The position numbers and the translations under genes were made by a program. From positions 1-38,784 of the forward strand of contig CAZJGX010000001.1 in assembly GCA_964545825.1 (NCBI GenBank): a stretch of 38,784 nt of DNA. The letters run 5' to 3'. The stretch is from an uncultured Muribaculaceae bacterium (GTDB lineage: Bacteria; Pseudomonadota; Alphaproteobacteria; Rs-D84). Positions 3,687-37,907 of the stretch are shown here, piece by piece (the stretch's first letter is position 1; each line of letters begins with the position of its first letter). Under the pieces are notes generated by a model. That model did no database searches and had not been told where the DNA came from. It saw only the letters and a list, made by a program, of their open reading frames with translations.

Positions 3687-3694
3687 GTTTTAAA

Positions 3695-3724
3695 TAAAAA
3701 AACGCACAACTGTGCGTTTTTTTA
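3695..3724 (+). terminator. intrinsic terminator
   Basis: AACGCACA-AC-TGTGCGTT hairpin followed by a T run. Confidence 0.8.
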
Positions 3725-3725
3725 T

Positions 3726-3993
3726 TTGTTTTTATTACTGCTGCATTATATAATTAAAATGTCAATAGGTATTCTGTTGACGGGGTGTGATGACCTCTGC
3801 CATAGCGTCGGGATATATACTCATGGCGCATATAATGCGCTGTTTTTTTTATTGCGACGAAACTATCTCCTGACCTGTGGTCAGGAGGGTTGTGAATATA
3901 TTGAATAAGCACACAATTCTATGGATTGTCATCAACCTCCTGGCCACTAAATTTTTGGTGGTTTTTTGTTTAACAAAATTAGGAGATTAGACA
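3726..3993 (+). promoter_or_regulatory. promoter + structured 5' leader, copy 1 of the repeated leader family
   Basis: -35 TTGTTT 3726-3731, 17-nt spacer, -10 TATAAT 3749-3754. 5' hairpin 3762-3780. GC hairpin 3826-3840 plus U tract. CTCCTGACC 3867-3875 / GGTCAGGAGGG 3879-3889 / CAACCTCCTGGCC 3933-3945. CCAC..GGTGG plus T6 at 3944-3967. AGGAG 3981-3985. ATG 3994. Confidence 0.8.
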
Positions 3994-4410
3994 ATGAAAA
4001 AAATATTGATTCCCGGCATTTTTATAACATGTATTGGTGTTGCCAGTGCGGCAACTGTAAAGTGTATTGCATTTAATACACAAACGGCATGCACTTATGA
4101 TAATCCTGGTGATTATGTAGATTTTACAGCCTATTGTGGTGGTATCACGGTCAGGGGGCTTGGCTATTGTTCAGAACAAAGTGGCAGCAGTGTCGGGTCT
4201 ACGACAATGGATTTGGAAAAGTCAAAAGGTATATATTGTTGGTGTCGTATGGTTTCGCCTGCATTATCCAATTGGGTATATTTGGAAAGTGCCATGGATA
4301 GTAGTCAGTGTGTGCATACGTGCAGCATAGATTGTGCGATTGCGTTGAATGATAGCAGGACGAAGGGTTCCAGTATGCGTCAAGGTATGTTTAATTCTGC
4401 CATTTATTAA
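3994..4410 (+). CDS. secreted cysteine-rich protein (138 aa)
   Basis: Signal peptide MKKILIPGIFITCIGVASA. Many Cys in the mature part. Preceded by leader copy 1 and an AGGAG RBS. Confidence 0.7.
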   Translation: MKKILIPGIFITCIGVASAATVKCIAFNTQTACTYDNPGDYVDFTAYCGGITVRGLGYCSEQSGSSVGSTTMDLEKSKGIYCWCRMVSPALSNWVYLESAMDSSQCVHTCSIDCAIALNDSRTKGSSMRQGMFNSAIY

Positions 4411-4423
4411 ATAGGATTGTGAA

Positions 4424-4729
4424 ATGAGGCAAATAAAGAAAATATTAGTTGTGTTGATTTGTCATTTGATGGTGTATGGTGCGTATGCCGCCACACCGTC
4501 AACCCAATGTCCATCCGGATATGTGACAATTGTTGAACCGTATACGATAATAGGATATCCGTATTGTGAATCTGTTGGCTCAATTATCCCAACGGAAATT
4601 GAACGTATAACAACGTGTTTGACTGATTCACCAGAAGCGGTTTGTACAATGTTTGTGCCGCGTGGTACGAAATATCAGGATGAAAGTGGTGAATACCAAT
4701 ATTCTGAACCATGTGCATTGGAACCATAG
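4424..4729 (+). CDS. secreted cysteine-rich protein (101 aa), second gene of the bicistron
   Basis: Signal peptide ..LICHLMVYGAYA, AGGA RBS, starts 13 nt after the preceding stop, terminator follows. Confidence 0.65.
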   Translation: MRQIKKILVVLICHLMVYGAYAATPSTQCPSGYVTIVEPYTIIGYPYCESVGSIIPTEIERITTCLTDSPEAVCTMFVPRGTKYQDESGEYQYSEPCALEP

Positions 4730-10328: not shown

Positions 10329-10342
10329 GGTGTATTTAGTAT

Positions 10343-10370
10343 AAAAAAACGGGCAATTGCCCGTTTTTTT
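10343..10370. terminator. bidirectional intrinsic terminator
   Basis: A7-CGGGCAATTGCCCG-T7 between convergent prfA and the OMP gene. Confidence 0.85.
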
Positions 10371-10383
10371 ATTTGACGTATTA

Positions 10384-11484
10384 TTAAAAAATGTATTTAA
10401 AACTGCTGCCCCAATTCCAACCTGTACGGCCGCCATCGCGACGGTTGATGTGTAATGCAACGTTAAATCTGTCGATTGATTTTATAACGCTAATGCCGTA
10501 TTCGGTATAATCATCTGATTTTAAATCGATTGTGTTAAAATCATTACTGCGCGCGTCGCCGCCGTCAGTCCATCCGATTACATATCGTACGTTTGCAGTT
10601 CCAAACCAACCGGCACCGATATACTTAATTGCGCGTATACCCGGTGTTATTTCGAACTGGGTCAGATTAGTGTTTGATATTTTTATGTCTTGGTATGTGT
10701 AATCATCTGATTTTACCCATGTGCCGCCCATGTATAATTCTGGCTGTAATGTCAGGGTGTCGTCAATTGCGATATTGTATGCCGCATGCGCCATTGCGCC
10801 GACCCATGTGTTAGTATAGTCAATATCGCCGTATCCGTTTTCAATACTGTTAAACATTGTGCCGATATTTGCTGTTGCGGATATGTTAAAGTTAGAAATA
10901 TTGTATCCTGAATAAACGCCTATATGACCACCTTGTTCATTGATTTTTAATGATGAATTTGTTTGTTCGCCACCGGCGTATCCGCCATATATACCCCATT
11001 GTGATACCGCGTTCCTGATTTGTGTGTGGCCGCCGGCCAAGGCGACGCTTACAATATCATAATCGGAATCAATTTTTCCAAAATTATCAAAGTGTGCATA
11101 GTCGTCAAAGTGTTGCCAGTTGGCAAATAAACTGTTGAATTTGGGCAGGGCGATGTCGCCGCCATTATGTCCGTGTGTGTATGCGGTGCCGTCATCGTTG
11201 TATTCGCCATAAACGGGCATTGTGCCATATTTTGTTGTGTCGTTGTTATTTTGTGGCGTGTTTGTATTGTTGTTTTGCGCCAGGTTTAAGTGTGCACGGT
11301 TGCCCAATGCGGCGGCCATTGTGCCTTCGAAAGATTCGATGGCGTTTGTTGCAATTGAGTGCTGGATGGCCGCAATATTGCGCGTAGACAAACTGTTGGC
11401 ATATGGTGTTATTGCGGCCCATGTGTTGCCTGTGGCTATGTTGGCGGCAAGTACAGATAATGCAATCATGTATGTGTTTTTCAT
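10384..11484 (-). CDS. outer-membrane beta-barrel protein (autotransporter-beta-domain-like)
   Basis: Signal peptide MKNTYMIALSVLAANIATGNTWA. Alternating aromatic/Gly-rich strands. C-terminal ..SSFKYIF with terminal Phe. Confidence 0.6.
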   Translation of the reverse strand: MKNTYMIALSVLAANIATGNTWAAITPYANSLSTRNIAAIQHSIATNAIESFEGTMAAALGNRAHLNLAQNNNTNTPQNNNDTTKYGTMPVYGEYNDDGTAYTHGHNGGDIALPKFNSLFANWQHFDDYAHFDNFGKIDSDYDIVSVALAGGHTQIRNAVSQWGIYGGYAGGEQTNSSLKINEQGGHIGVYSGYNISNFNISATANIGTMFNSIENGYGDIDYTNTWVGAMAHAAYNIAIDDTLTLQPELYMGGTWVKSDDYTYQDIKISNTNLTQFEITPGIRAIKYIGAGWFGTANVRYVIGWTDGGDARSNDFNTIDLKSDDYTEYGISVIKSIDRFNVALHINRRDGGRTGWNWGSSFKYIF

Positions 11485-11546
11485 GCGTAATTCTCTCTCT
11501 TTTGATAAGAAGTATATCATATTCGAAAATGTTTTTGAAACTGAAT

Positions 11547-13545: not shown

Positions 13546-14212
13546 TTTGTATTTGTAATAAAGTAATTTATGAAAAAAATATGGCGCAAATTTTGCGCCA
13601 TATTTTTTGTGGGATAAAAGGTTGGTGGATGTTGGTGGTTTGTAAAATGATATCTGTTGAAATGGATAAAAGTGTATATTGTTTTGTGTGCAGGGTGACA
13701 TAATCAAAAGGCGCATAATTTATATTATGTATAGTTTTGTGTTCTAGTGGTGTGATGTGGTGTATGATTGGGTGCCGTTTTGATTTTGTTGCTTAAAATA
13801 AAAATGTTTCTGAAATCAGTTTGATAAAAATTATTTTTGATGTTCATTATTAATTTTTTTGTGTTGTTCTGGTGCGAATATTTTTTTGTTCTGTGTTGCA
13901 TTTAATTGAGTGTTATTGGGTCTATATGAAAAACATGGATTTTGTGTTTGTTGTTGTGTGTGTTTTGTGGTGGTTTTTGGATGTTGTTTTGGTTGTGATG
14001 GATGTCTTGGGTGCTCTATTTCTGGTGGTGGGGTTTAATGTAAAACTATACATAATTCTTAAAAGGGTGGTTTATTGTTAAAAATATTTATAAGTGTAAT
14101 AACATTGTAATAATTTTAATTGTTAAAGTAAAATATTGTATCTTTGTCGGTGTTATAATGTTTGTTTTTTTGGTGTGTTGATTTTTTATCTGATGCATTT
14201 ATAATATGTTGT
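13546..14212. other. long non-coding, strongly G+T-biased / C-depleted intergenic region
   Basis: Hand count: about 29 C in 13621-14160 (540 nt). Only one compositional-artefact ORF. Confidence 0.6.
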
Positions 14213-14926
14213 ATGAGTACAAGATTAGATCAAGAATTGGTTTCACGTGGATTGTATATCAGTCGTGCCAAGGCGGTAGCTGCGATAAAGGCCGGCTTGG
14301 TTCGTGTTAATGGTGTTGTTGCGACAAAGGCCAGTCTGGCTGTATCTGATACTGATATTATTGATGGTGCGGATTTGCCGTATGTTTCAGGACGTGGCAG
14401 TTTAAAGTTGGCGCATGCGTTAGATACGTTTCATGTTAATCCGGCGGGATATCAGTGTCTGGATGTTGGTGCCAGTACCGGTGGTTTTACCGAAGTCTTG
14501 TTGTCCCGTGGCGCGGCGCATGTTATTGCGGTGGATGTTGGTTCAAATCAATTGGTTGCCGAAATAAAAAATGATGCCAGGGTTATGTCAATGGAACAGA
14601 CGGATATTCGCACCCTGCCCCCGGTGTCCGGAATTGATTTGATAGTTATTGATGTTTCGTTCGTATCGCTGACCAATATTGCAGATGCGATTGCGGCATG
14701 GCGTTCGCCAGAGATAATTGCGCTGATAAAGCCTCAGTTTGAGGTATCACGTGAAATTGCCGCCCGTTTTAACGGCATTATTAAATCAGAACAATTGCAT
14801 CATGATGTAATTAATCGGGTTGAAAAATGTTTTTCAGCCTTGGGCTATGTATCGCGTGGCGTGATTGAATCGCCAATTCGTGGTGGCAGCGGTAATATTG
14901 AATATTTGGCCTATTTCGTTAAATAA
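14213..14926 (+). CDS. tlyA: TlyA-family 16S/23S rRNA (cytidine-2'-O)-methyltransferase
   Basis: Start at MSTRLDQELVSRGL (S4-like). RGSLKL. LDVGASTGGFTEVLL. IDVSFVSL. G..GNIEYL. Confidence 0.88.
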   Translation: MSTRLDQELVSRGLYISRAKAVAAIKAGLVRVNGVVATKASLAVSDTDIIDGADLPYVSGRGSLKLAHALDTFHVNPAGYQCLDVGASTGGFTEVLLSRGAAHVIAVDVGSNQLVAEIKNDARVMSMEQTDIRTLPPVSGIDLIVIDVSFVSLTNIADAIAAWRSPEIIALIKPQFEVSREIAARFNGIIKSEQLHHDVINRVEKCFSALGYVSRGVIESPIRGGSGNIEYLAYFVK

Positions 14927-14985
14927 AACGTTTTGTGAATTTGTTCTGGTTGAATATAGGTTTAAAAACATACATAATTACAACA

Positions 14986-15052
14986 GGTGGAGGTTCTAAA
15001 CTGTATACTGTGAGACAGCGTCGCTTATTCGACGTATTCACGACCCTCCACC
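14986..15052 (-). ncRNA. orphan copy of the core closing-stem / A+U-rich junction domain of the repeated leader family (no terminator, no downstream gene)
   Basis: RNA sense: GGTGGAGGGTCGTGAATACGTCGAATAAGCGACGCTGTCTCACAGTATACAGTTTAGAACCTCCACC. Collinear with GGTCAGGAGGGTTGTGAATATATTGAATAAGCACACAATTC..AACCTCCTGACC. Confidence 0.45.
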
Positions 15053-15299
15053 TACTTTTGCAGATGAGGGGTGTTTTTTGTCCCCGCGGACACACAGTAT
15101 TTGGGTTTAGCGCCCTTGGCGACAGGAAAAAAAGAACCTGTGCTTGTGCTGATATTTTAAACTAATTTTGGGATAAAAATCAAGTTCTTTTATTAATTGA
15201 TATGTGTTGTAATGTACAAATTGCTTGAATTTAGTGGTGTTGGTGTATAAAATTCAAATTATTTGAATTTAATTAAACAGCAGCCCGAGGTATATAACA

Positions 15300-17696
15300 A
15301 TGGCAGATAATATCGACAAAATTCATGCCCGCGAATCAAAATGGCAGAAAAAATGGCAAGAATCTAATGTCTTTACACCTAAAAATGATGGCGTAAAGCC
15401 GCCTTTTTATATGTTGGCGGAATTTCCATTTCCGTCGGGAACGGGGTTGCATGGCGGACATATGTTAAACTATACCGGGTGTGACGTTATGGCGCGTTTC
15501 ATGCGTATGCGTGGCTATGATGTGTTGTTTCCGTTGGGGTTTGATTCTTTGGGGATTTCAGCAGAAAATTATGCCACCAAAATTGGTCAGCATCCATCGA
15601 TTGTTGTGCGTGATTTGGCTAAAAAATTTACTAAAAATATGCTGGATATGGGTTGGTCTATTGATTTGAAATCCCAGGTGGCAACATCTGATCCAGAATT
15701 TATAAAGTGGACACAATGGATGTTTATTCAGTTCTTTAAGGCGGGTTTGGCATATAAGTCTATGTTGCCGATGAACTGGTGCCCGCATTGCCGTACGACG
15801 CTGACAAATGAAGAATTGGAAGATGGCAAGTGTAATCGTTGTCATGGCGATGTTGAAATCAAAGAAAAAATGCAATGGAATTTGGCGATTACAAAATATG
15901 CGCAGCGTATGTTGGATGATTTGGCGTTGGTTGATTATCCAGAAAAAGTTAAGCGTGACCAGATGAACTGGATTGGGCGTTCAACTGGCGCGGATATTGA
16001 TTTCCGTGTCGGTGATGATGTGATGACGGTTTATACCACACGTCCTGATACTATATTTGGTGCGACGTTCTGTGCAATTGCGCCGGAACATAAATTGGTG
16101 GCCAAGTGGCTGGATGATGGTCGTATTACAAACGCTGATGCGGTGCGGGATTATATTCGTGCGGCGGCGGCCAAATCTGAAATTGACCGAACAGATGTGA
16201 CCAAAGAGAAAACAGGTGTCCAATTAGAAGGCATTATGGCAACAAATCCATATACTGGTAAAGAAATTCCGATTTTTGTTGCGGACTATGTCTTGGCCAA
16301 TTATGCCCAGGGTACGATTATGGCGGTGCCCGCGCATGATGGGCGTGACTGGGATTTTGCCAAGAAATACAACCTGGAAATTATCCCGGTGTTGGCGGGT
16401 GGAACTGCGGACGCTGTATGGGAAGGTGATGGTGCACATATTAATTCAGGATTTATGGATGGTATGAGCAAGGCAGAAGCAATCACAGCCGCAATTGAAT
16501 TTGGTGAAAAAGGTGGCTTTGCACGTCCAAAGACACGTTTTCGTATGGGCGATTGGGGATTTTCGCGTCAGATGTACTGGGGTGAACCAATTCCGTTGGT
16601 ATATTGCGAAAAATGTGGTTGGGTGCCGGTTCCAGAATCTGAATTGCCGCTGATGCAGCCGTTCATGGCGGATTTTCGTCCAACCGAAGATGGGGAAAGC
16701 CCACTTGCACGTGCAACGGATTGGGTGAATACCACCTGCCCGCATTGTGGTGCGCCGGCGCGACGCGAGACTGATACTATGCCACAATGGGCGGGCTCGT
16801 CGTGGTACTATATGCGGTACCTGGATCCAAAAAATGATTCAGAGTTCTGTTCCCGTGAACAGATGGCGCGGTGGATGCCGGTTCATCACTATAATGGTGG
16901 TAATGAACATAATACACGCCATTTGATTTATTCGCGTTTTTGGCACAAGGCATTGTATGATTTGGGGTATGTGACCACGCCGGAGCCATACAAGAAAAGA
17001 ACGACCAATGGCTTGTTGATGGGTTCGGATGGCAAAAAGATGTCTAAATCTGCCGGAAACGGTTTTCAGGTTGATGAAAAAGTTGCCGAAGTTGGGGCCG
17101 ATGCTGCGCGTACAACGGTATTGTCGCTGGGGCCATGGGATTCAAATGTTAATTGGTCAGAAGGTGCATTGGCCGGTGTTCAGCGTTTCTTGAAACGTGT
17201 TGAAAATATGTCTGATAATTTGACAGATGCGGCCCTGACCGCCGAACAAGAAAGATTGATGCATCAATTAATTGCGGATGTGACAGAACGTATTGAGAAC
17301 ATGCGGTATAACACGGCGATTTCCGCGATGATGGAATATCTGAACGCGTTTGGTGGCACAATGCCCCGCCCTGCGTATGTGGCATTGATACAGTGTTTAA
17401 ATCCGTTTGCACCGCATTTGACCGAAGAAATATGGGAAAAATTGGGTAATATGGAAATGTTGGTACTGTCGTCGTGGCCGACATTTGATGCGTCAAAGTT
17501 GGTCAAGACATCAATGACGGTCGTTGTTGCAGTAAATGGGAAACGTGCGGCGGATTTTGTGGTGCCTGTGGATGCATCAGAATCCGATGTTGTTGATGCG
17601 GCCAAAAACGCGGCGGCAAAAAGGTTGGTTGACGCCCAAATTATAAAAACAATTGTTGTGCCTGGTAAGATGGTGAACTTTGTTGTAAAAAAGTAG
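15300..17696 (+). CDS. leuS: leucine--tRNA ligase
   Basis: FPFPSG.GLHGGH (HIGH-type), CP1 editing domain, KMSKS at ..GKKMSKSAGN. Confidence 0.95.
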   Translation: MADNIDKIHARESKWQKKWQESNVFTPKNDGVKPPFYMLAEFPFPSGTGLHGGHMLNYTGCDVMARFMRMRGYDVLFPLGFDSLGISAENYATKIGQHPSIVVRDLAKKFTKNMLDMGWSIDLKSQVATSDPEFIKWTQWMFIQFFKAGLAYKSMLPMNWCPHCRTTLTNEELEDGKCNRCHGDVEIKEKMQWNLAITKYAQRMLDDLALVDYPEKVKRDQMNWIGRSTGADIDFRVGDDVMTVYTTRPDTIFGATFCAIAPEHKLVAKWLDDGRITNADAVRDYIRAAAAKSEIDRTDVTKEKTGVQLEGIMATNPYTGKEIPIFVADYVLANYAQGTIMAVPAHDGRDWDFAKKYNLEIIPVLAGGTADAVWEGDGAHINSGFMDGMSKAEAITAAIEFGEKGGFARPKTRFRMGDWGFSRQMYWGEPIPLVYCEKCGWVPVPESELPLMQPFMADFRPTEDGESPLARATDWVNTTCPHCGAPARRETDTMPQWAGSSWYYMRYLDPKNDSEFCSREQMARWMPVHHYNGGNEHNTRHLIYSRFWHKALYDLGYVTTPEPYKKRTTNGLLMGSDGKKMSKSAGNGFQVDEKVAEVGADAARTTVLSLGPWDSNVNWSEGALAGVQRFLKRVENMSDNLTDAALTAEQERLMHQLIADVTERIENMRYNTAISAMMEYLNAFGGTMPRPAYVALIQCLNPFAPHLTEEIWEKLGNMEMLVLSSWPTFDASKLVKTSMTVVVAVNGKRAADFVVPVDASESDVVDAAKNAAAKRLVDAQIIKTIVVPGKMVNFVVKK

Positions 17697-17743: not shown

Positions 17744-18011
17744 TTGTGTTTTATTTCGGTTGGCGGTATAATCATATTGTTCGTGGGTGTTCCATGAACG
17801 GGGTGTGAGAACCCGGCATAGGCGTCGGAATATGTTCTTGTGGCGTATGATTTGCGCTGTTTTTACTATTGCGACGGAAACAAACTCCTGGCGTTGGTCA
17901 GGAGGGTCGTGAAATATCAAAATAAGCGCACAATTCCTATGATTGTTCTCAACCTCCTGGCCCACCATTTATCGGTGGTTTTTTGTTTGTGATAAATAAC
18001 AGGAGTTTGAA
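17744..18011 (+). promoter_or_regulatory. promoter + structured 5' leader, copy 2
   Basis: -35 TTGTGT 17744-17749, 17 nt, -10 TATAAT 17767-17772. Hairpin GTTCGTGG/CCATGAAC 17779-17799. GGTCAGGAGGG 17896-17906. CAACCTCCTGGCC 17950-17962. CCACC..GGTGG plus T6 ending at 17984. AGGAG 18001-18005. Confidence 0.8.
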
Positions 18012-18539: not shown

Positions 18540-18566
18540 AAAGAATGCCCCGTTTGGGGCTTTTTT
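18540..18566. terminator. bidirectional terminator between convergent Cys-rich protein genes
   Basis: GCCCC-GTTT-GGGGC flanked by A and T runs. Confidence 0.8.
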
Positions 18567-19362
18567 ACTGTTGATAAAAGCATTCATCGGTTAGAAAAAA
18601 TGTGCCGGTTGTATCTATGAAGGCTTCTTCGTAATAACTGCTTAAACCATCGATATAGCATTCTGTGATACTGGTGGCACCGTCGCTATATGTTTCGCCC
18701 CGTACAGCGGTACCGTTGTGGGCCAATGTGCCCAGGTGGCCGGCGTCACTGTCGGGGCATTCCGTGCATGTGGTGCCGTTTTTGTAATACATATATTTGC
18801 ATATAAATGTTGTTGTGCCGGTGCCACCGTTACATGTTGCGTTTGCCGGGCATGTGATGCATCCGCTGGATGGATTGCCATAGTATCCGGATTTGCATCG
18901 ATATTGTGATGTGGCGGTTTCACCACTGCGTACGTTGCATTTGCCTTGCATTTGGTATGTGTATGTATAATAACGTTCGCGTCCATTGCCGACATCCTGC
19001 CAGCCGCCGTCCGGTGTTGTTTCGCATGCGCAACCGAACTCTGGGCCGCTGGTCATGACATAAACATTATAGCCAATTCTTTCGCATAATGATTCGCAGT
19101 ATGCATATGGTTGACTTGCAGAGTATCCTGTATCTGTGAAATCTTCGCATTTCCCCAGTTCGGCGCGCCAGCAAAAATGTTCTTCTGCTTTGGCGGCGCA
19201 TTGGGTGTCGGTTATATTTGTAAGACTGCCGCCTATAATATAATAGTTAGTGTATGGGCAAACGGTGCCAGTGCATTTGTCCATGATTTGTACTGTTCCT
19301 GATGCGGAATTGGTTATGGCCATGGCAAGTGCCATTGCGGTTAATAATAAATGTTGTTTCAT
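18565..19362 (-). CDS. secreted cysteine-rich protein (265 aa) with CxxGYYG..C..CP-type repeats
   Basis: Start at MKQHLLLTAMALAMAITNSASG. YRCKSGYYGNPSSGCITCPANATCNGG. C-terminal ..ATSITECYIDG..ECFY. Confidence 0.7.
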   Translation of the reverse strand: MKQHLLLTAMALAMAITNSASGTVQIMDKCTGTVCPYTNYYIIGGSLTNITDTQCAAKAEEHFCWRAELGKCEDFTDTGYSASQPYAYCESLCERIGYNVYVMTSGPEFGCACETTPDGGWQDVGNGRERYYTYTYQMQGKCNVRSGETATSQYRCKSGYYGNPSSGCITCPANATCNGGTGTTTFICKYMYYKNGTTCTECPDSDAGHLGTLAHNGTAVRGETYSDGATSITECYIDGLSSYYEEAFIDTTGTFFLTDECFYQQ

Positions 19363-19626
19363 TTGTTCGTTTCTCCTGTGTTTTTCGTAATGAAAAACCA
19401 CCAAATTTTGGTGGTCAGGAGGTTGAGAACAATCCTTAGATTTGTGCCGCTTATTTTTATATATCGCAGCCCTCCTGACCGCTTTGGGCCCAGGAGTTTT
19501 TTCGTCGTATTAAAAAAGGCGCATTGCGCCAATCAATTCCTGACGCTAAGGCAGAGGTTCTCACACCTCATCAACGGAACACCCGTTGACAGTAATAATT
19601 ATATAATGCATGGCATGGAAACACAA
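19363..19626 (-). promoter_or_regulatory. promoter + structured 5' leader, copy 3
   Basis: Minus strand: -35 TTGTGT 19621-19626, 17 nt, -10 TATAAT 19598-19603. GTCAACGG/CCGTTGAT hairpin. GGCGC-AAT-GCGCC plus U6. CTCCTGG../GGTCAGGAGGG (19470-19480)/CTCAACCTCCTGACC (19413-19427). CCACC/GGTGG 19398-19414 plus U run. Confidence 0.8.
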
Positions 19627-19630
19627 ATAA

Positions 19631-19657
19631 AAAAATCCCGCCGTTTGGCGGGTATTG
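19631..19657 (-). terminator. intrinsic terminator of the glycosyltransferase operon
   Basis: CCCGCC-AAAC-GGCGGG plus T7 on the minus strand. Confidence 0.8.
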
Positions 19658-20764
19658 TTATGACCATAATGATTCATACAGTTTTATTGTGTCTGAAATC
19701 ATTTTTTTGCGTGTATATCTGTTCAGAAATCGTGAATATCCTGCAACAGACATGCGGTTGCGTACGGATGCGTTTTCTATAACTTGGCACATTTGGGCCG
19801 CATATTGCGTTGTGTTAATATTGTGTTCATTGTCCACATCAGCATAAAGGGCCGCATTGTCAAACATTTCAACAAGACCGGACACACGTGATGATACGAT
19901 AGGCAGATTATATGACAGTGCCTCGATACCTGCAAAAGAACAGGCTTCTTCCCGGGATGCGAACAGAGCGGCATCTGCTTGCTCGTAATACCGACGAATT
20001 TCGGAATCGTCGGTTAATATGCCTTTATAGACAACCGGCAGGTCGGCGATTTCATCCAGGATGCCTGATGCCTCTGTATCATGGCCACCCAAGACAGTCA
20101 CTTCTATCTTATGTTTTTTTGCAACAGTTCGAATTGCAGGGACTATTTTTGCAAAGCCTTTGTTCTTTGCCAGACCGTTTGCAAATATAAACCGAAATGT
20201 GTCGTCTTTGGGTTTCTTGGATTCGATTTTGGGTTTATCAACACCGTTATAGATTACTGAAAATGGACGCGTGCAATGCCAGTAATCCATATATTTACGA
20301 CCGTTATCGCCAACCAAGATAATTGCATCCATATTAAAGAACGGATCGGCCGGCACAAATCCGGGCGTGTTATTCATTGGCGGCTGGCAATGCAAGACAC
20401 CGATTGTGCGACAATATATGCGGCTTTTTATCATGTATGCCAATCCTTCGCACGACAGACAATCACTTTTTACGATTAGATTCGGCATAGATTTTATCTT
20501 TGGCCAAATCATATTTATAACCGCATCAAACAGGCTTTGAAACGGAAAACCCATCGGGTGAAAAATCTGTAATTCGTCATCGGTATCAACGATACGAATA
20601 TCTTTGTATTCCGTTGAACGATAAAATACGATGTTATACGTTGATATATGCGATGGCATACTGTCGCGCAGAACGCGAAAGTATGTTGCAATACCGCTTT
20701 GATAATGCGCATCACGCGCATCGATTTCTATTATGCTGATAGATTTAAGTGATTTTTTACGCAT
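19658..20764 (-). CDS. glycosyltransferase (GT-B fold, GT4-like)
   Basis: C-terminal EEACSFAGIEALSYNLPIVSSRVSGLVEMF (E-x7-E type region). FIFANGLAKNKG. Starts 9 nt after the upstream stop. Confidence 0.8.
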   Translation of the reverse strand: MRKKSLKSISIIEIDARDAHYQSGIATYFRVLRDSMPSHISTYNIVFYRSTEYKDIRIVDTDDELQIFHPMGFPFQSLFDAVINMIWPKIKSMPNLIVKSDCLSCEGLAYMIKSRIYCRTIGVLHCQPPMNNTPGFVPADPFFNMDAIILVGDNGRKYMDYWHCTRPFSVIYNGVDKPKIESKKPKDDTFRFIFANGLAKNKGFAKIVPAIRTVAKKHKIEVTVLGGHDTEASGILDEIADLPVVYKGILTDDSEIRRYYEQADAALFASREEACSFAGIEALSYNLPIVSSRVSGLVEMFDNAALYADVDNEHNINTTQYAAQMCQVIENASVRNRMSVAGYSRFLNRYTRKKMISDTIKLYESLWS

Positions 20765-20773
20765 CTGTTATCT

Positions 20774-21589
20774 TTATGCCCCCGTGCCACTACCTGTACC
20801 AGTAGTAGCGCATCCTGTATCATTTTCTGTAATGGCCAGTGTACTGGAATAAGAACAGTGTCTATTTGCCAACATATATTTGCCGACACAATCGTTATAT
20901 GTTTGTCCAGAAGAAGATGTCGCACCTGATTCATATACATAACAGTTTGTGATACCGGTGCCAGCTGTTGAACCAAAACAATATCCTGAAACACACATAT
21001 TGTCCGCATTGCCGGCGTATATTCCTGTTGGAAATGCGGCTAAGCCTTCGTTAAAGCGCCCGCGCCCCGGACATAGTATACAACAACCTGTAAACGCGTT
21101 GAGGTCGGTACCGCTATTGATTGCATCACATGGCGATGTGGACTTTGTTTGATATGCGCCATTTAGACATCCACTAAATTTGAAAATACTCAGGCTGCCA
21201 ATTTGGCCTGATGTTTTGTTTAATACCATAGAACTTGCACCTGCAAGCATGTCTTTCTCGCATTTCAGACCTGTGCCGTCACAGGAAGAGTATGTGCCAC
21301 ATGGCGTCTGTTTTCCATCCCAACACGAACACCAGCGGCACAATGCTTCGGTCGCCGTGCCTGTTGCACATGTGTATTTGTTGTTCCCGTCTTTAAATTG
21401 ATTGCAATAACTTCCTTGTAATGCTGCATCATTAAAAACATATAGATATCCGCCGGTACCACCGTTTGCTGTATAAGAAAGAACGGTATAGCCTGCTGTG
21501 TGTGTATAGTCACTTTTTGCATCGCGCATGCCTATTGCGCCGAACACCGCCATACATGTTCCCAGAATTCGAATAGTTGTACGTTTCAT
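20774..21589 (-). CDS. secreted cysteine-, Gly/Thr/Ser-rich protein (271 aa)
   Basis: Start at MKRTTIRILGTCMAVFGAIGM. Many Cys. ..GITNCYVYESG... C-terminal GCATTGTGSGTGA tail. Confidence 0.7.
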   Translation of the reverse strand: MKRTTIRILGTCMAVFGAIGMRDAKSDYTHTAGYTVLSYTANGGTGGYLYVFNDAALQGSYCNQFKDGNNKYTCATGTATEALCRWCSCWDGKQTPCGTYSSCDGTGLKCEKDMLAGASSMVLNKTSGQIGSLSIFKFSGCLNGAYQTKSTSPCDAINSGTDLNAFTGCCILCPGRGRFNEGLAAFPTGIYAGNADNMCVSGYCFGSTAGTGITNCYVYESGATSSSGQTYNDCVGKYMLANRHCSYSSTLAITENDTGCATTGTGSGTGA

Positions 21590-21859
21590 TTTGTTTGATC
21601 TCCTGTCTTTTTCGAAATGAAAAACCACCCAAAATCAAGGTGGTCAGGAGGTTCAGAACAATCTCAAGAATTGTGTGCTTATTCAATATATTCACAACCC
21701 TCCTGACCATCGGTCAGGAGATTATTATCATCAGAATAAAAAATAGCGCGTTTACGCGCCACAAGATTATATTCCGACGCTTGAGCACGGGTTCTGACAC
21801 CCCATTGACGGAACTCCCGTCAACATTGTTATTATATAATATCATGGGAATTAATACAA
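21590..21859 (-). promoter_or_regulatory. promoter + structured 5' leader, copy 4
   Basis: Minus strand: -35 TTGTAT 21854-21859, 17 nt, -10 TATAAT 21831-21836. GTTGACGG/CCGTCAAT hairpin 21804-21824. GCGCG-TAAA-CGCGC 21746-21759 plus U tract. A 42-nt block at 21667-21708 is identical to 3879-3920. CCACC..GGTGG plus U run. AGGAG. Confidence 0.8.
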
Positions 21860-21861
21860 AT

Positions 21862-21889
21862 AAAAAATCCCGCCGTTTGGCGGGTATTT
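21862..21889 (-). terminator. intrinsic terminator of the rpiB-containing operon
   Basis: CCCGCC-AAAC-GGCGGG plus a T run, near-identical to 19631-19657. Confidence 0.8.
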
Positions 21890-22336
21890 TTATGATATTT
21901 TTTCAATGCGTCTGATACGTCGTTCAATGTTGTCAAACGGGCTTTCCAGAAATGTTTGTGTGCATAGAAATGCAACTTCTATATCTATATCATCGGCGGC
22001 CAATGCCAGAACGTTTATATCGTCGTGAAATCTGTCATCGCGTGCCTGGGTTGGATTGTCGCATCGTGATGCGCGGATATGACGGTATCTGTTCGCTGCG
22101 ATTTCCATGCCGGCACCGGTACCACAAATCAATATGCCGCGTGAGTTTTTGTCGTCTTTCATCGCGTCCGCCAAATCTTTTGCAATATCTGGGAAATCAA
22201 CAGATGTGTTTGGGTCGTCTGTGCCCAAGTTTACAACCGTATATCCGGCCGCGTTCAGCATTTCAATCAGATATAATTTTACCCCTACCCCACGGTGGTC
22301 AGCCGCAATATAGACCTTGGATACGTTTTTGTTCAT
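21890..22336 (-). CDS. rpiB: ribose-5-phosphate isomerase B
   Basis: Start at MNKNVSKVYIAADHRG, ILICGTGAGMEIAANR. ATGA overlap with the bactofilin stop. Confidence 0.88.
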   Translation of the reverse strand: MNKNVSKVYIAADHRGVGVKLYLIEMLNAAGYTVVNLGTDDPNTSVDFPDIAKDLADAMKDDKNSRGILICGTGAGMEIAANRYRHIRASRCDNPTQARDDRFHDDINVLALAADDIDIEVAFLCTQTFLESPFDNIERRIRRIEKIS

Positions 22337-27776: not shown

Positions 27777-30356
27777 TTATTTTGTTAATGCTTGGGGCGC
27801 TTTGTCTGGAATTTCGCATGCAGACCCAGCAGACCCACTGGGTTTATATGGGCATACCTGTTTCGTGGTCAGATTGATTGATTGGGTGCACCACTGGTCA
27901 CGTGATGTGTCGGTGGTTGCCTGTGATACCTTGATGCCTTCTGTGCTGCAGGCGGCGTCAAGCGCATCTTTGCCATCTTTTGGCGTTATTGTTGGCAGCG
28001 CGGCAACGCAAATCGGGCTTTTCCCCCATTTGCTGCGTCGGCCACCGTTTTCCCAGCACAGGCATGCCCCCCATGATTGTGTATCTACACTTAAACCATA
28101 GTCACGTGGACACATGTTTTCTTGGGTGCCAATACTGTATGAACTTATCAAGTCTGCATAATCTGATTTTTCAAAATCCCCAATGCAAAAGTCGGTTTCT
28201 GTGTACGCGTGCAACGGCAATATAAATTGCGGTTCCAAGAATCTGCCTTGCAGATTTGAGCACTGAATAGACAGCATATCGACAATCTGATAGTAAATTT
28301 CGGTTGCAACGCCGGTTGGACGTGGTTCGTGATGCGCCAATAGGGGCTTTTTTGTTTTTTTGCCGCCCTCTTCTATTTCCTTTACTTCTTTTGTGCCGTA
28401 TCTGATTTCGGCTTCTTTTGGTTCTGACGTAATTTCAAACAAAATGCCCTTGGATGATATCTTTGTAGTGTAATATTTGTCGAATCCACCGAATACTTCT
28501 TCTACTTTGTCCTTGCAAGAATCTATTTCTGCCAATTGTTTTGCACACTCTGATTTGTATTGGTGGCCACCAGTGGTTTCGTCATACAGGGTTAACCAAT
28601 CCAATGCCTCGCCGGATGTGAACAGCCCACTGTACGGATAGTAAAAGTTCTGGTATCCTGTTCCGCCAAATTTATCAAAGCATTGTTTTGCTGCCGCGCG
28701 ACATGCAGATGTGCGATCGGTATCTTTGCGATTCTCGATATAGTCTGCGATGATTTTGCCGTCAAACATATTGTCGCATGAATTAACATAGTTGCGACAC
28801 ATTTCACTGTTTAATACGACTTTGTCCGGTTGGATTACAATATCACTGCCGTCGGTCAGTGCCTGCATTGCCTGGGTTAAACCTTTGTCCACGTTTGTAT
28901 AACATGATGAAATGAAATCAAAACAGCCTTGTTTAATTTCTGCAACTTTGGACTTTTGGGCATAGTATATAGACAGCAGTGCCTTGTCCAGATATTCTGC
29001 CCAGACGTCATCTGCCTGCTCGACGCATTTATCTAATGCGGGTGCTGCGAATTTTTTTACACGTTTTTCAAAGTTTTGAACGAATTGACGATTGTCGACC
29101 AATTTTGATAATTGTTGGTTTGCGGCATCAACACTGTCACTGAACGTTAACAATTTTTCCAGTTCATAGAATTTTTCAACACCGGTAATAGGCTTGCCCG
29201 TAGATATATCGATAAATTCACCATTATCCAGACACTTGTGATAATTTGCACCGCATACTTCTTCGCTAAGTACGGCGGCCTCTACATTATTCAAACATGT
29301 TGTAAAGTCGGATGAATTGTGGTTTTTGCGGTTTTCAACACGTGCCAAATCCAGCATTGCACTGCCCTCGCGCACGGCGGATTTCATTTGCTTTTGCTTG
29401 GTTTCTATCGCAGTTTGGACAGTATTGCAGTCTTGTTCAATCGCCATCAAGTATGCAGTTATTGCACGTTGCAATGACGCGTCATTACAATCACCGCGTA
29501 CGGCCTGGCGGCATTGGGGGTATACGGCGGAATATAAATTTTTGCCGTTATAGGTACCGATTATTTGGCCGGCATCAGCCGTACCAAACGCATTGGCGGT
29601 ATCAAATGATATGTTGATGCTGTTCAGGTCAGAATATTTTCCACCAACCGATGCATTGTCGCCACGTATAGAATTCATAATTGCCTGTAATAATGCCTTG
29701 GATGCCGATGAATCTGATGTTAGTGCACTTTCACCCTCGGATGCGCGTTTCATGGATGTTGCCTGGGCGGCGGTCATACCAACAACGTCCAGGTTTTCTG
29801 TAAATGTGGTTAATTTTTCGCCGGCCTGTTGCAGTGTGTCAAACGCATCATCCAAATCGTACACCCTGTCATTGCAAGAGCATCGACGATAATTGTCGTT
29901 TTTCAGTTGGCAAAACTGATCCATACATGTGAAATATGCGGTTTTGCAACGTTCATAATCTGCACCGGTGCGTGTTTGACTCATTACGCTGGTGTCTGTA
30001 TCTGTTGCAGCGCGTGCGTTGGTGGCGGGCATCCGGGTTGTTGTGGCCCGTGTGGCAACTGTTTTTAATGCGGTTGCGGCACGTGATATTGTGGCGCGTG
30101 CGCCACTGGTTTCAGGTGTTGCCCGTTGTGATACGTTATTTGCAGTACGTGCACTTGTGCGTGCCGATGTGGTTGTTGCCCGGGCCTGTGAATTTGATGT
30201 GCCCAAGCGTGATGTTGTGGTGCGTTCAACAGGCTTGGTTGAAACAACACGTTGTGATGATGTGGTACGTGAATTTGATGCGCCGTCACGCACGGCGGCC
30301 GTTGCGCCTGATGCAATAAATATAGAATATGCGATAAAAATTAGAATTCTGCTCAT
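27777..30356 (-). CDS. large secreted cysteine-rich protein (859 aa) with N-terminal T/S/A/R-rich low-complexity region
   Basis: Signal peptide MSRILIFIAYSIFIASGATA. About 110 aa of ARATTTSARTSART-type low complexity. The remainder is Cys-rich, with no motif I recognise. Confidence 0.7.
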   Translation of the reverse strand: MSRILIFIAYSIFIASGATAAVRDGASNSRTTSSQRVVSTKPVERTTTSRLGTSNSQARATTTSARTSARTANNVSQRATPETSGARATISRAATALKTVATRATTTRMPATNARAATDTDTSVMSQTRTGADYERCKTAYFTCMDQFCQLKNDNYRRCSCNDRVYDLDDAFDTLQQAGEKLTTFTENLDVVGMTAAQATSMKRASEGESALTSDSSASKALLQAIMNSIRGDNASVGGKYSDLNSINISFDTANAFGTADAGQIIGTYNGKNLYSAVYPQCRQAVRGDCNDASLQRAITAYLMAIEQDCNTVQTAIETKQKQMKSAVREGSAMLDLARVENRKNHNSSDFTTCLNNVEAAVLSEEVCGANYHKCLDNGEFIDISTGKPITGVEKFYELEKLLTFSDSVDAANQQLSKLVDNRQFVQNFEKRVKKFAAPALDKCVEQADDVWAEYLDKALLSIYYAQKSKVAEIKQGCFDFISSCYTNVDKGLTQAMQALTDGSDIVIQPDKVVLNSEMCRNYVNSCDNMFDGKIIADYIENRKDTDRTSACRAAAKQCFDKFGGTGYQNFYYPYSGLFTSGEALDWLTLYDETTGGHQYKSECAKQLAEIDSCKDKVEEVFGGFDKYYTTKISSKGILFEITSEPKEAEIRYGTKEVKEIEEGGKKTKKPLLAHHEPRPTGVATEIYYQIVDMLSIQCSNLQGRFLEPQFILPLHAYTETDFCIGDFEKSDYADLISSYSIGTQENMCPRDYGLSVDTQSWGACLCWENGGRRSKWGKSPICVAALPTITPKDGKDALDAACSTEGIKVSQATTDTSRDQWCTQSINLTTKQVCPYKPSGSAGSACEIPDKAPQALTK

Positions 30357-32487: not shown

Positions 32488-32726
32488 AAATCCCCCTATT
32501 CTGCATATGCAAAAACCACCTATGCGTGGTGGTTGGAGGTTCGTTACAATTTTGCTTAAATTGTGCTGTTTATTCGATATATTCACAGGCCCTCCAACCG
32601 CTTCTGATTGGAGATATTTAACGTCGCGCCATTTATGGCGTGGACGAAGCTAAAAGAGGTAACGACACCCCTGTATGATGCATTTCATACATTGCTATTT
32701 TATATTAAAACAGTATTCGTTAGCAA
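32488..32726 (-). promoter_or_regulatory. promoter + structured 5' leader, copy 5 (most divergent, compensatory changes)
   Basis: Minus strand: -35 TTGCTA 32721-32726, 16 nt, -10 TATAAA 32699-32704. GTATGA/TCATAC hairpin. CGCCA-TAAA-TGGCG. CTCCAATC (32606-32613) / GGTTGGAGGG (32590-32599) / CCTCCAACC (32531-32539). CCACC/GGTGG 32516-32532 plus U5. Confidence 0.75.
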
Positions 32727-36356: not shown

Positions 36357-36400
36357 TTTGTTTTTGCTGACGTAAATTTGTTAAAAGCGTTTGCAATAAT

Positions 36401-36430
36401 AAAAAAATCCGTCATTTGGCGGATTTTTTT
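36401..36430 (+). terminator. intrinsic terminator after the tRNA pair
   Basis: TCCGTC-ATTT-GGCGGA plus T7. Confidence 0.8.
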
Positions 36431-36493
36431 ATGGTGCTGAATTAATGCTTTTTTATTAAAAAAAGAAACGATAAATATGTTATAATGTAATGT

Positions 36494-37558
36494 ATGAAAA
36501 AATACTTTATATTTTCTGTTGCTTGTGTGATGGCCGGGGCGTCAAATGCCGCGTCGTTATTGCAGGCTGTCAAATTTCCAAAAACATTTGATGATGTTAA
36601 ATGGTCTGAACGTATGGATGTGTTGGCCGAAGACTATAATAATTATGCAGAATTAAGCCCGTATCAACAATTAAGACTGGTAGAAGCCGAAAATCAGGCG
36701 TATCAAGAAATAGATGCAATAAACGCATCAGAGTGTGCGGCAACGGGAAACGCATGCGATATTGATACACCTATATCTGATGGTAGTACATATACCGTTG
36801 TAATAAATAATAATAGTACACCTATATCTGAAACCGTTGAAAATACGCCTGTGGTGGAATCGTATCCGGTTCAGGAAAATCCCGTTGGTGCATCGTCCGG
36901 TGGGGCGGCACAAACACCAACAGGATATTGTTCTGTTCGGCAACCAGAAATACCACAGGGACAGCAGGTGCCGTTGGGCAGTCCTGTGAATTTTAATGAT
37001 TTGCCGGCCGCGGCATCAGATAGAAGCCGGCGCATCGCCGCAGACAGTAAAAAAGGGAAGTTTTGTTCGCCATATGGTTGTCGCGAGAAATATAACAATC
37101 GTGGAACCTATCGCCCACATCAGGGGATTGATATAGGATGTACTGCGGATTATTTTGGGATGCCGGTTTATACACCTGCCGATGGTGTTGTGACCCAGGT
37201 TAACTATGCCAAAAAAGGAAAGTCGGCTGGAAATTATATTCGTATAAAACATGCGGACGGATGGGAAACACAGTATATGCATTTGGATAAAATTTTTGTT
37301 TCCAAGGGACAATCTGTTAGTGCGGGATGTGCAATTGGGTTATTGGGGCATTCCGGCGGAAATGCGGATTCATCAAATCCATCAATGGGTATAGATATAA
37401 GTCATTTGCATTACGAGGTTATTTATAATGGTTCGGCGTCAAATGTACAAACACCAAACGGCAGTAGTATAAGAGTTGTACGTGGTGGCAATAAGGCATG
37501 TGGTAAATTTAAAGCAAAAATTAAACCGGATGATTTTGTCACATATTATTATAAATAA
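36494..37558 (+). CDS. secreted M23 (LytM) family peptidase
   Basis: Signal peptide ..ACVMAGASNA. HQGIDIGC. YMHLDKIFVSKGQSV..G..IG..GHSGG. HLHYEV. Confidence 0.85.
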   Translation: MKKYFIFSVACVMAGASNAASLLQAVKFPKTFDDVKWSERMDVLAEDYNNYAELSPYQQLRLVEAENQAYQEIDAINASECAATGNACDIDTPISDGSTYTVVINNNSTPISETVENTPVVESYPVQENPVGASSGGAAQTPTGYCSVRQPEIPQGQQVPLGSPVNFNDLPAAASDRSRRIAADSKKGKFCSPYGCREKYNNRGTYRPHQGIDIGCTADYFGMPVYTPADGVVTQVNYAKKGKSAGNYIRIKHADGWETQYMHLDKIFVSKGQSVSAGCAIGLLGHSGGNADSSNPSMGIDISHLHYEVIYNGSASNVQTPNGSSIRVVRGGNKACGKFKAKIKPDDFVTYYYK

Positions 37559-37583
37559 AAATCCGCCATTTGGCGGATTTTTT
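37556..37583. terminator. bidirectional terminator
   Basis: A5-TCCGCC-ATTT-GGCGGA-T6 between convergent genes. Confidence 0.8.
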
Positions 37584-37589
37584 AATAGA

Positions 37590-37907
37590 TTATCTTAATC
37601 CCTTGGCGCGACAGCAGGCTGATGCGGCACTGCGCCAATCTGAATACTGTTTACCCGGATTACGTAAATCTGTCCATGGTTGCCAGCCTGTGCAATTTTT
37701 ATTTGTGCTGGTGCCACTGCATTTGGCATAACGACGCAGTGAACATGTTTGGTTTGAAACCTTGCCTGTGTCAGTTGTGCATTTCACGACAACATTTTGA
37801 TTTTTTGCATCGTTTTTGCCCATTTCCTTGGATGATAAAACCTGGTATGCGTTCGCGGTCGTGATGGTCGCGATGGATATTGTAATTACCATTAACAGTT
37901 TTCTCAT
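37590..37907 (-). CDS. small secreted cysteine-containing protein (105 aa)
   Basis: Signal peptide MRKLLMVITISIATITTANA. 7 Cys in the mature part. No repeated leader upstream. Confidence 0.55.
   Translation of the reverse strand: MRKLLMVITISIATITTANAYQVLSSKEMGKNDAKNQNVVVKCTTDTGKVSNQTCSLRRYAKCSGTSTNKNCTGWQPWTDLRNPGKQYSDWRSAASACCRAKGLR

Follow-up and report, generated by a model that had tools for sequence, protein, structure and literature searches.

The stretch analyzed here (the window) comprises 38,784 nucleotides (nt) of contig CAZJGX010000001.1 (assembly GCA_964545825.1), from an uncultured alphaproteobacterium of the Rs-D84 lineage. It is chromosomal, with genes for leucyl-tRNA synthetase (LeuRS), transketolase, and an M23 peptidase along with tRNA genes; its GC content is about 43%. 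The element under study occupies positions 21590 to 21859 of the minus strand and runs from a predicted promoter to the start codon of an open reading frame (ORF) of 271 amino acids (20774 to 21589, minus strand) with a signal peptide, 7.4% cysteine (Cys), and no Pfam family found. Between predicted promoter and start codon, in the 5' untranslated region (UTR), lies a covarying structured domain that recurs before other ORFs in the window. We consider it probable that this leader represents a new family of cis-acting, riboswitch-like transcription attenuators whose choice between alternative helices is set by an effector.

The studied module (copy 4) appears to be a self-contained expression cassette. 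Its parts would be, in order, a terminator that insulates it, a promoter of the sigma-70 type, the leader RNA (about 215 nt), an intrinsic terminator, a Shine-Dalgarno (SD) sequence, and the gene. A terminator hairpin of the upstream gene, CCCGCC/GGCGGG with U6 (21862 to 21884, minus strand), abuts the -35 element and insulates the leader cassette; a similar hairpin precedes the promoter in many homologues. The predicted -35 (TTGTAT, 21854 to 21859, minus strand) and -10 (TATAAT, 21831 to 21836, minus strand) elements are separated by 17 nt, just as an earlier note on this DNA had described, and the consensus across 113 homologues agrees (TTG at 90/70/60%, 17 nt, then TATAAT at 60 to 90% per position) and lies at a fixed distance from the first hairpin. 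Transcription is predicted to start about 7 nt after the -10 element. At the far end, an SD sequence (AGGAG, 21604 to 21600) and the ATG (21589 to 21587) stand before the regulated gene (21587 to 21604 in all, minus strand). At least 110 members of the family lie in sense orientation directly before a start codon, which mostly falls 14 to 40 nt beyond the U tract of the final hairpin and so leaves no room for a second promoter; the five complete window copies each finish about 20 to 40 nt ahead of the ATG that opens a signal-peptide ORF. The U tract and the A-rich spacer before the SD sequence are often complementary (UUUUUC..GAAAAA in copies 3 and 4; window 21605 to 21625 and equivalents) and could form a further hairpin in read-through transcripts, A-richness being normal upstream of an SD sequence.

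Five modules reported in the window proved to be present at the places and on the strands given, homologous, and alignable end to end (alignment A1), with scores of 200.8, 198.2, 169.7, 153.2, and 110.2 bits against our covariance model R1. Copy 1 (3726 to 3993, plus strand; RNA 3758 to 3972; 198.2 bits) precedes a signal-peptide ORF of 138 amino acids; copy 2 (17744 to 18011, plus strand; RNA 17776 to 17989; 169.7 bits), an ORF of 175 amino acids with 9.1% Cys; copy 3 (19363 to 19626, minus strand; RNA 19387 to 19593; 153.2 bits), an ORF of 265 amino acids (18565 to 19362) with 7.2% Cys; and copy 5 (32488 to 32726, minus strand; RNA 32505 to 32694; 110.2 bits), which belongs to an "AAC" subtype (CUCCAAUC / GGUUGGAG / CCUCCAACC), a signal-peptide ORF of 377 amino acids. 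A degenerate pattern derived from these five copies, AATAARC-N1-2-CACAA-N15-24-AACCTCC, matches exactly the five module places in the window, with none expected (100 shuffles). The count of five was nevertheless incomplete. A sixth, degenerate copy (14959 to 15132, minus strand; 41.6 bits, E of about 1e-13) has no gene downstream and is located between a convergent gene (14162 to 14926, plus strand) and LeuRS, with no ORF after it. It keeps the helices named below as S2 (CUAAA/UUUAG), P5, and P6 and a perfect 9-bp antiterminator (AGGUGGAGG/CCUCCACCU), while its P4 and terminator are decayed; the copy may be read as a relic or as an orphan RNA. The six leader copies take up about 1.5 kb of the 38.8-kb window.

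A block of 42 nt, noticed earlier and found to be exact, is identical between copy 1 (3879 to 3920) and the reverse complement of 21667 to 21708 in copy 4, and the proteins downstream of these two copies are not alignable despite it. Bidirectional terminator hairpins (AAAAAATCCCGCCGTTTGGCGGGTAT..) are near identical at 19630 to 19663 and 21862 to 21895 and occur also at 3694 to 3728, 10341 to 10375, 36399 to 36433, and 37555 to 37588. Those upstream of copies 3 and 4, which share 97% identity over 34 nt, lie directly against the leader -35 element, suggesting that whole cassettes were duplicated or gene converted. Together with capture by a phage (see below), these identities indicate that the cassette moves. 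They would also be expected if the modules were DNA-level homology boxes serving duplication, gene conversion, and shuffling of cassettes among surface-protein paralogues as well as phage capture, the RNA fold being incidental, and the entire cassette in the phage points the same way; this alternative has to be judged against the pattern of substitutions within the leader.

Fold of the leader RNA

One genome per species was scanned with the pattern, which gave at least 120 loci; among the matches listed, nhmmer confirmed at least 116 and covariance model R1 at least 117. The fold was read from 93 non-redundant sequences, and pairs were then counted. Numbering follows copy 4, where RNA position p equals window coordinate 21828-p, and all copy-4 elements below lie on the minus strand.

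The RNA begins with hairpin P1 (GUUGACGG / CCGUCAAU; RNA 4 to 24, 21804 to 21824), whose stem had already been seen to covary among the window copies; across the family, all eight of its pairs show double-sided changes, and 99.0% of cells are paired. Mini-hairpin S1 follows (RNA 25-28:37-40, 21788 to 21803), with GGGG at 21803 to 21800 pairing with CCCG at 21791 to 21788. Its pair R26:Y39 is GC in 83 members, GU in 17, and AU in 14, and is never unpaired; A26 always occurs with U39 (14/14), with no A-C. The loop of S1 holds the strand UCAGAA (RNA 31 to 36, 21797 to 21792), which pairs far downstream with UUCUGA (RNA 170 to 175, 21653 to 21658) as helix S2. This helix is 99.9% paired, with double-sided changes in 6/6 pairs, four of which changed in 40 to 66 sequences each. 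The "conserved" block GGGGTGTGAGAACC..AGCGTCGGAAT of the earlier note is thus not conserved throughout: its middle pentamer is hypervariable and covaries, in S2, with the pentamer just before AACCTCC.

A second long-range helix, PK2, joins CUCAAG (RNA 43 to 48, 21780 to 21785), directly 5' of arm P3, to the loop (RNA 160 to 165, 21663 to 21668) of mini-hairpin P6 (CAAU / AUUG; RNA 155 to 169, 21659 to 21673). P6 itself had been recognized as a mini-hairpin; the pairing of its loop with the junction immediately upstream of the GCGUC stem had been missed. PK2 comprises 6 to 9 contiguous pairs in 109 of 113 members, through 83 distinct duplex sequences, compared with a mean of 3.6 pairs when a strand is set against another member's partner, and its covariation score is 0.555 versus 0.211 on columns that the model treated as unpaired. 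The loops of S1 and P6 therefore each pair with the strand that follows the other mini-hairpin, the S1 loop with the strand 3' of P6 (S2) and the P6 loop with the strand 3' of S1 (PK2). As shown by comparative analysis, S1/S2 and P6/PK2 make up a predicted symmetric, interlocked double pseudoknot that closes a junction of three arms (P3, P4, and P5). P1 and this double pseudoknot, with its variable-length P3 and with P4 and P5, would be the sensor.

The base of arm P3 (CGUCGGAAU / AUUCUGAUG; RNA 49 to 99, 21729 to 21779) covaries in 6/6 base pairs. The arm is 12 to 97 nt long and in copy 4 carries a GC-rich tip and U tract at 21743 to 21762 that a consensus scan calls terminator-like. In the earlier note, this GC hairpin with its U tract stood as a first terminator; as an obligatory one it was rejected, since it lies within the covarying P3 arm and is absent in 42/114 members. 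A run of at least four U residues occurs in only 72/114 members, almost all of one clade, so the tip is optional; it could be a pause or early-termination site in the clade that carries it. The 3' strand of hairpin P4 (CUCCUGACC-GAU-GGUCAGGAG; RNA 108 to 128, 21700 to 21720) is the central strand that the two switch helices share. A short stem, P5 (RNA 131 to 153, 21675 to 21697), has an A/U-rich internal loop around the conserved GAAUAUAUUGAAUAAG and covaries, its stem pairs varying as UA 79 / CG 18 / GC 9 and as CG 70 / UG 28 / UA 12. An alternative P5 pairing, UUGUG/CACAA, which appears in the minimum-energy fold of copy 4, was set aside because most members have UUGCG at that place. The final hairpin, T (GACCACC / GGUGGUU with U5, or U5-7 across the family; RNA 183 to 205 plus the U tract, 21620 to 21645), also covaries in its stem and is terminator-like in the consensus scan; with a GC-containing stem followed by a U run, it has the form of an intrinsic (Rho-independent) terminator and is predicted to act as one. 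Of these features, S2, PK2, the P5 stem, and the sixth copy had been overlooked.

One clade has an extra hairpin inserted in the P5 loop. In this AAC clade (L002, L009, L022, L031, L039, L067, L079, L084, L099, L111, and others), a variable hairpin insert (GAAUAAUG-hairpin-CAAAAUAAG; alignment A3, columns of about 238 to 277) takes the place of the loop AUAUAUU. The same clade is without the long P3 tip, and the P3 and P5 arms seem to trade length between clades.

Covariation is strong whether or not the alignment had been fitted to a structure. On a MAFFT alignment fitted to none, 91.9% of cells are paired (80.6% when shuffled), with 558 double-sided changes (182 shuffled) and a covariation score of 0.404 (0.193 shuffled). 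The model-aligned members (n = 117) give 95.0% of cells paired (79.1%), 897 double-sided changes (265), and a score of 0.482 (0.187). None of 500 shuffles reached the observed values in either alignment, and controls in which the 3' partner was slid scored at most 0.116 (unfitted) and 0.087 (model-aligned). RNAalifold, run on the MAFFT alignment without prior structure, recovered P1, S1, GGAGG:CCUCC, P5, P6, and T. Comparative analysis thus shows all the predicted helices and both alternative pairings of the switch. The result is a well-supported new RNA fold, with nine covarying helices, two interlocked pseudoknots, and direct comparative evidence for selection on both switch states. Recombination does not yield hundreds of compensatory double substitutions that preserve nine helices, and it is precisely S2 and PK2, the segments that evolve fastest, that keep their complementarity. 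Homology boxes as the sole explanation are therefore largely refuted by covariation and very improbable, although the leaders could have such a role in addition.

A single nested closing helix, GGGGUGUGAGAAC:GUUCUCAACCUCC, proposed by ViennaRNA, was replaced in part, because A26 covaries with U39 in S1 and is uninformative with respect to the invariant U179. Its GGGG:CCUC segment is a possible alternative in the OFF state, as modeled. Several unpaired nucleotides are also invariant (GGGGUGU, GAAUA...AAUAAG, and CACAAU). Such a compact, nested double pseudoknot with invariant unpaired nucleotides might recall glmS or HDV-like ribozymes and suggest a catalytic RNA, self-cleaving or otherwise, with a role in processing the mRNA at its 5' end. 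We find this hard to credit, since no Rfam ribozyme family matches, the conserved antiterminator/terminator pair would have no role in a ribozyme, and a divergent subtype has replaced the P5 loop, which is the best conserved of the unpaired regions.

That divergent subtype (L119:6767-7006, minus strand; L022:6961-7200, plus strand; and L026:3766-3975, plus strand) scores 24 to 47 bits. Besides replacing the conserved P5 loop, its members change GGAGG/CCUCC to GGGGUG/CACCCC or GGGUUG/CAUCCC. They keep S1, S2, PK2, P6, P4, the antiterminator, and the terminator.

A proposed terminator/antiterminator switch

The central strand GGUCAGGAGG (RNA 120 to 129) can pair either with the upstream strand at RNA 108 to 116, forming P4, or with the downstream strand CCUCCUGACC (RNA 177 to 186, 21642 to 21651), which pairs with the central strand at 21709 to 21700 to form the antiterminator (AT). 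AT and the 5' arm of the terminator share 4 nt, GACC (RNA 183 to 186). This alternation of partners, with the downstream one overlapping the terminator, had been proposed from the window copies, and across the family both helices are kept by compensation. Since a deletion has shortened all three switch strands by 1 nt in one clade, the pairs of P4 and AT were counted on an alignment (A5) whose anchors are the invariant GGAG/CUCC ends. AT is paired in 95.4% of cells (81.0% shuffled), with double-sided changes in 8/10 pairs and a covariation score of 0.363 (0.122 shuffled), and 90/93 sequences have at least nine consecutive pairs. P4 is paired in 90.4% of cells (75.8% shuffled), with double-sided changes in 8/9 pairs and a score of 0.435 (0.185 shuffled).

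Compensation has occurred independently in several lineages: in the UGAC-to-AAC clade, through the 1-nt deletion in all three strands; in L112, where U-A became C-G in both P4 and AT; in L052 and L036, with GGAGU opposite ACUCC; in window copy 6, with AGGUGGAGG opposite CCUCCACCU; and in the divergent subtype, where GGAGG/CCUCC became GGGGUG/CACCCC. Selection that maintains both of two mutually exclusive helices is the hallmark of a functional switch, and this supports the central idea of the earlier note, which was right in outline. P4 and AT share a strand, AT and T share GACC, and all three covary, an arrangement that corresponds to a predicted expression platform in which mutually exclusive helices govern a terminator.

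The switch strands resemble SD (GGAGG) and anti-SD (CCUCC) sequences, and in copy 4 the real SD region, CAGGAG, has a complement in CUCCUG. The leader might accordingly control translation or mRNA stability. In that case the CCUCC strands would imitate an anti-SD and hide or expose the true ribosome-binding site, and the final hairpin would be no more than a structural or stabilizing stem. We regard this as improbable. The real SD lies in a variable spacer, 14 to 40 nt past the U tract, without conserved pairing to the leader, and SD sequences do not follow the UGAC-to-AAC change. The final hairpin, moreover, is always accompanied by its U5-7 tract. Since the divergent subtype keeps the pairing of the switch strands and loses the SD-like sequence, resemblance to an SD is not the conserved feature.

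For an attenuator, we propose the following scheme. In the ON state, the 3' strand of P4, GGUCAGGAGG, would leave its hairpin and pair with CCUCCUGACC, which starts one base after S2, as a 10-bp antiterminator. This would take GACC from the terminator stem, so that RNA polymerase could read into the gene. With P4 closed, the terminator would form and transcription would stop after about 205 nt; the CCUCC strand may then pair with the invariant GGGG (RNA 25 to 28), stacking on or extending S2. OFF would thus comprise P4, GGGG:CCUC, and T, and ON would comprise S1 and AT, which is plausible as a scheme. We infer that the choice is made during transcription, in the 15 to 20 nt or so between synthesis of the switch strand and of the terminator 3' arm, and that an effector (small molecule, protein, or RNA) binds the pseudoknotted junction and biases the outcome between P4 and AT.

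Downstream genes and known regulatory families

All five complete window copies precede signal-peptide ORFs, four of which contain 7 to 9% Cys. The earlier statement that a leader stands before every Cys-rich secreted-protein gene holds for the four ORFs with at least 7% Cys. Four other signal-peptide ORFs in the window are without a leader: 10384 to 11520 (minus strand), 27777 to 30356 (minus strand), 36494 to 37558 (plus strand), and 37590 to 37907 (minus strand). Across the family, nearly all downstream ORFs (n = 89) have an N-terminal signal peptide. By one crude rule for N-termini, 69/78 (88.5%) of the downstream proteins are signal-peptide-like, compared with 150/592 (25.3%) of other ORFs in the same loci. 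Most downstream proteins have no Pfam or NCBIfam family found, and the few that match do so to surface-type families, namely, OMP beta-barrel, Opacity porin, FadL/TodX, AcfA, Rickettsia Adr adhesin, PKD, Listeria-Bacteroides repeat, and ephrin-receptor-like Cys repeats. The downstream genes suggest a regulon of secreted, outer-membrane, Cys-rich surface proteins, which would give a defined set of candidates, mostly without family assignment.

Several considerations weigh against an effector-controlled attenuator of such a regulon. Most of the double-sided counts for P4 and AT derive from one clade split, so that independent events are modest in number (roughly five to seven), and the postulated GGGG:CCUC pairing is invariant and beyond the reach of covariation. 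All of the transcription signals, from promoter and start to termination at T, are predictions from sequence. Nested folding places the state with P4 and the terminator a mean of 11.6 kcal/mol below the AT state in 98/99 members, and the advantage of the P4 state is still 6.5 kcal/mol before the 3' arm of the terminator has been made, so read-through would need help; these values come from nearest-neighbor folding without pseudoknots, which cannot hold AT together with S2 and PK2. In favor of the attenuator, the isolated helices are of similar energy, -12.2 kcal/mol for the P4 hairpin and -18.2 kcal/mol for the antiterminator duplex, which outweighs it. A few members precede genes for non-secreted proteins, namely, a helix-turn-helix protein (L045) and an acetyltransferase-like protein (L016). 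No ligand, protein partner, or gene function offers a clue to the effector, and the downstream genes, by their Pfam and NCBIfam matches, give no metabolic hint. Finally, copy 6 stands alone, with no gene behind it.

The last of these points, and the fact that the terminator state is the predicted minimum-energy fold, would suit a free small RNA of about 205 nt that is released at the terminator from many loci and acts in trans as a protein sponge or antisense RNA, the downstream genes being reached by leaky read-through. Several copies in one genome (at least eight in one case) and a highly conserved P4-P6 core are compatible with this too. It would, however, leave unexplained why compensation preserves a helix that destroys the RNA's own terminator and why at least 110 members are sense oriented right before a start codon, the ORF being signal-peptide-like in 88%. 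No common seed would be available to the copies either, given that their variable helices differ from one to the next, and copy 6, having lost P4 and the terminator, looks like decay rather than specialization. A trans-acting RNA therefore seems unlikely, if slightly less so than control of translation.

Coding readings of the leader, be it as a leader peptide, as a small ORF behind the SD-like AGGAGG, or as an antisense ORF (such as 21577 to 21915, plus strand), were rejected, since no reading frame is conserved. The frame with the longest open stretch is inconsistent between members, with a median of 59.5 amino acids compared with 49.5 in shuffles, and the ATG at RNA 23 to 25 is replaced in at least 15 members, as expected of a G-U/G-C base pair.

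The earlier note had left the element unclassified, and a scan with Rfam 15 (4,227 models, including riboswitch, T-box, leader, ribozyme, and Weinberg-motif families) concurs. At gathering score, the window gives only four tRNAs, and three divergent loci (L069, L111, and L021) give nothing. At E of 10 or less over 21500 to 21950, there were only sub-threshold chance matches (at most 25 bits, against cutoffs of 37 to 114), none covering the leader and most of them on the terminator of the upstream gene. We found no earlier description of the leader in literature on Enterousia, Rs-D84 RNA motifs, or Cys-rich signal-peptide riboswitch candidates, and none of gene regulation in "Candidatus Enterousia"/Rs-D84.

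The leader would work like a transcription-terminating riboswitch or a factor-dependent attenuator. Of the transcription-terminating riboswitches, those for cyclic di-GMP (c-di-GMP-I/II, or GEMM) have surface and secreted proteins under their control, with many copies in a genome. The leader resembles them in its position in the 5' UTR, in a covarying, multihelix pseudoknotted sensor followed by mutually exclusive antiterminator and terminator, and in its multiple copies before envelope or secreted-protein genes. It differs in fold, which is a symmetric double pseudoknot with three arms, and the Rfam models for GEMM-I and c-di-GMP-II gave no match even at E of 10 or less over the copy-4 element. 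As in trp, pyr, and T-box attenuators, one strand (GGUCAGGAGG) picks an upstream or a downstream partner, the latter overlapping the terminator; unlike them, the leader has no leader peptide and no PyrR/TRAP-type repeat signature, its upstream domain is far larger and pseudoknotted, and its genes are not amino acid related. For the T-box in particular, there was no Rfam match in the window or at E of 10 or less over the copy-4 element, the downstream genes encode secreted proteins, and the LeuRS gene (15300 to 17696) has no leader in sense in the covariance-model search of the window.

S1/S2 has the classical geometry of H-type pseudoknot aptamers (preQ1-II/III, SAM-II/V, and fluoride), with a first stem of 4 bp and a second of 6 bp, a loop 1 of 2 nt, and a long loop 3, and it immediately adjoins the switching strand. 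The leader pseudoknot is, in contrast, duplicated and interlocked with P6/PK2, encloses about 110 nt of extra arms, and has no Rfam match. In Mycoplasma (vsp/vlp) and Borrelia (erp/mlp), conserved 5' regions, such as upstream homology boxes, precede paralogous genes for variable surface proteins. There, as here, one conserved promoter plus leader stands before many unrelated or fast-evolving secreted-protein genes of one small genome, but conservation in those systems is at the level of DNA or promoter, whereas selection on the leader acts on RNA base pairing.

Genes neighboring the leaders add some detail. A GT4 glycosyltransferase gene (19658 to 20764, minus strand) begins 9 nt after the Cys-rich ORF of copy 4, with no terminator between them, and is probably cotranscribed under the copy-4 leader, as would suit an enzyme that glycosylates the secreted protein or the envelope. 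In the same way, a second signal-peptide ORF (4424 to 4729, plus strand) follows the copy-1 gene after 13 nt and is probably cotranscribed with it. For the 138-amino-acid protein of copy 1 (3994 to 4410), a homologue search among 5.8 billion proteins gave only five relatives, and a search of its AlphaFold2 model (pLDDT 67.7) against the PDB with Foldseek returned no usable match (best E, 0.37). Many regulated proteins (window 18565 to 19362, minus strand; L124:9872-10360; and several ORFs of other loci) carry repeats of the form C-x-SGYYG-x(5-7)-C-x2-CP, a pattern reminiscent of Cys-rich repeats in variable surface proteins, and two members match the Pfam ephrin-receptor-like domain (PF07699). 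Among the ORFs without a leader, 27777 to 30356 (minus strand) encodes 859 amino acids with a signal peptide, 3.5% Cys, and no Pfam family.

Distribution of the leader and a phage-borne copy

Among the matches listed, all confirmed ones, apart from one in a phage contig, fall in metagenome-assembled genomes (MAGs) labeled "Candidatus Enterousia," uncultured gut Alphaproteobacteria, or "Rickettsiales." Enterousia is a member of the uncultured order Rs-D84, and nearly all of its genomes are smaller than 1 Mb (PMC12306168). The 26 loci at which the pattern matched outside this group (in Bacillota, Brocadia, archaea, and others) were discarded as chance; none of them scores in the covariance model. 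As far as sampled, the family is confined to gut Rs-D84 Alphaproteobacteria, where it stands before much of the secreted, Cys-rich proteome, and to one phage contig. Single MAGs contain at least eight (isolate KA0024-133), at least six (Red_deer_3_mag_193), and at least five (another) copies, and these numbers are lower bounds because the scan required the exact pattern.

The phage contig, IMGVR_UViG_3300010163_000459 (L124) from IMG/VR, holds a full leader with its own promoter (L124:10381-10594, minus strand; 150.5 bits). Its genes include a portal protein (PF12236, 3.5e-83), terminase domains, DnaB, and a weak tail-tube match, on which basis we regard it as a T7-like phage. The leader precedes a Cys-rich signal-peptide ORF of 162 amino acids (L124:9872-10360, minus strand) on the strand opposite the portal gene, placed in the manner of a moron gene. 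The phage copy suggests that the cassette can be mobilized and provides a handle for linking phages to these hosts.

With about 1.5 kb of a 38.8-kb window spent on six copies, and at least eight copies in one MAG, the leader may be a major regulator of the way in which these cells appear to the gut or to a partner organism, and it is a regulator candidate for organisms ("Candidatus Enterousia," Rs-D84) known only from MAGs. More speculatively, the interlocked double pseudoknot might be the sensor of a new class of riboswitch or RNA-protein switch that reads one cellular or host signal and switches the whole Cys-rich secreted and surface repertoire in these sub-megabase gut genomes, and which a phage has captured to time its own secreted protein. 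We hold this broader proposal to be possible but clearly less secure than attenuation itself; if it were true, the leader would be an RNA-based master regulator of the cell surface.

In P0002, a homologue of the copy-1 protein (window 3994 to 4410), the public gene call extends the ORF by about 59 codons 5' into the leader, and the extension (…RVRRVANILNKHTI…) is the translation of GGTCAGGAGGG…. Annotation thus at times takes a leader of this family for an N-terminal extension of the protein, and at least one public prediction can be corrected accordingly.

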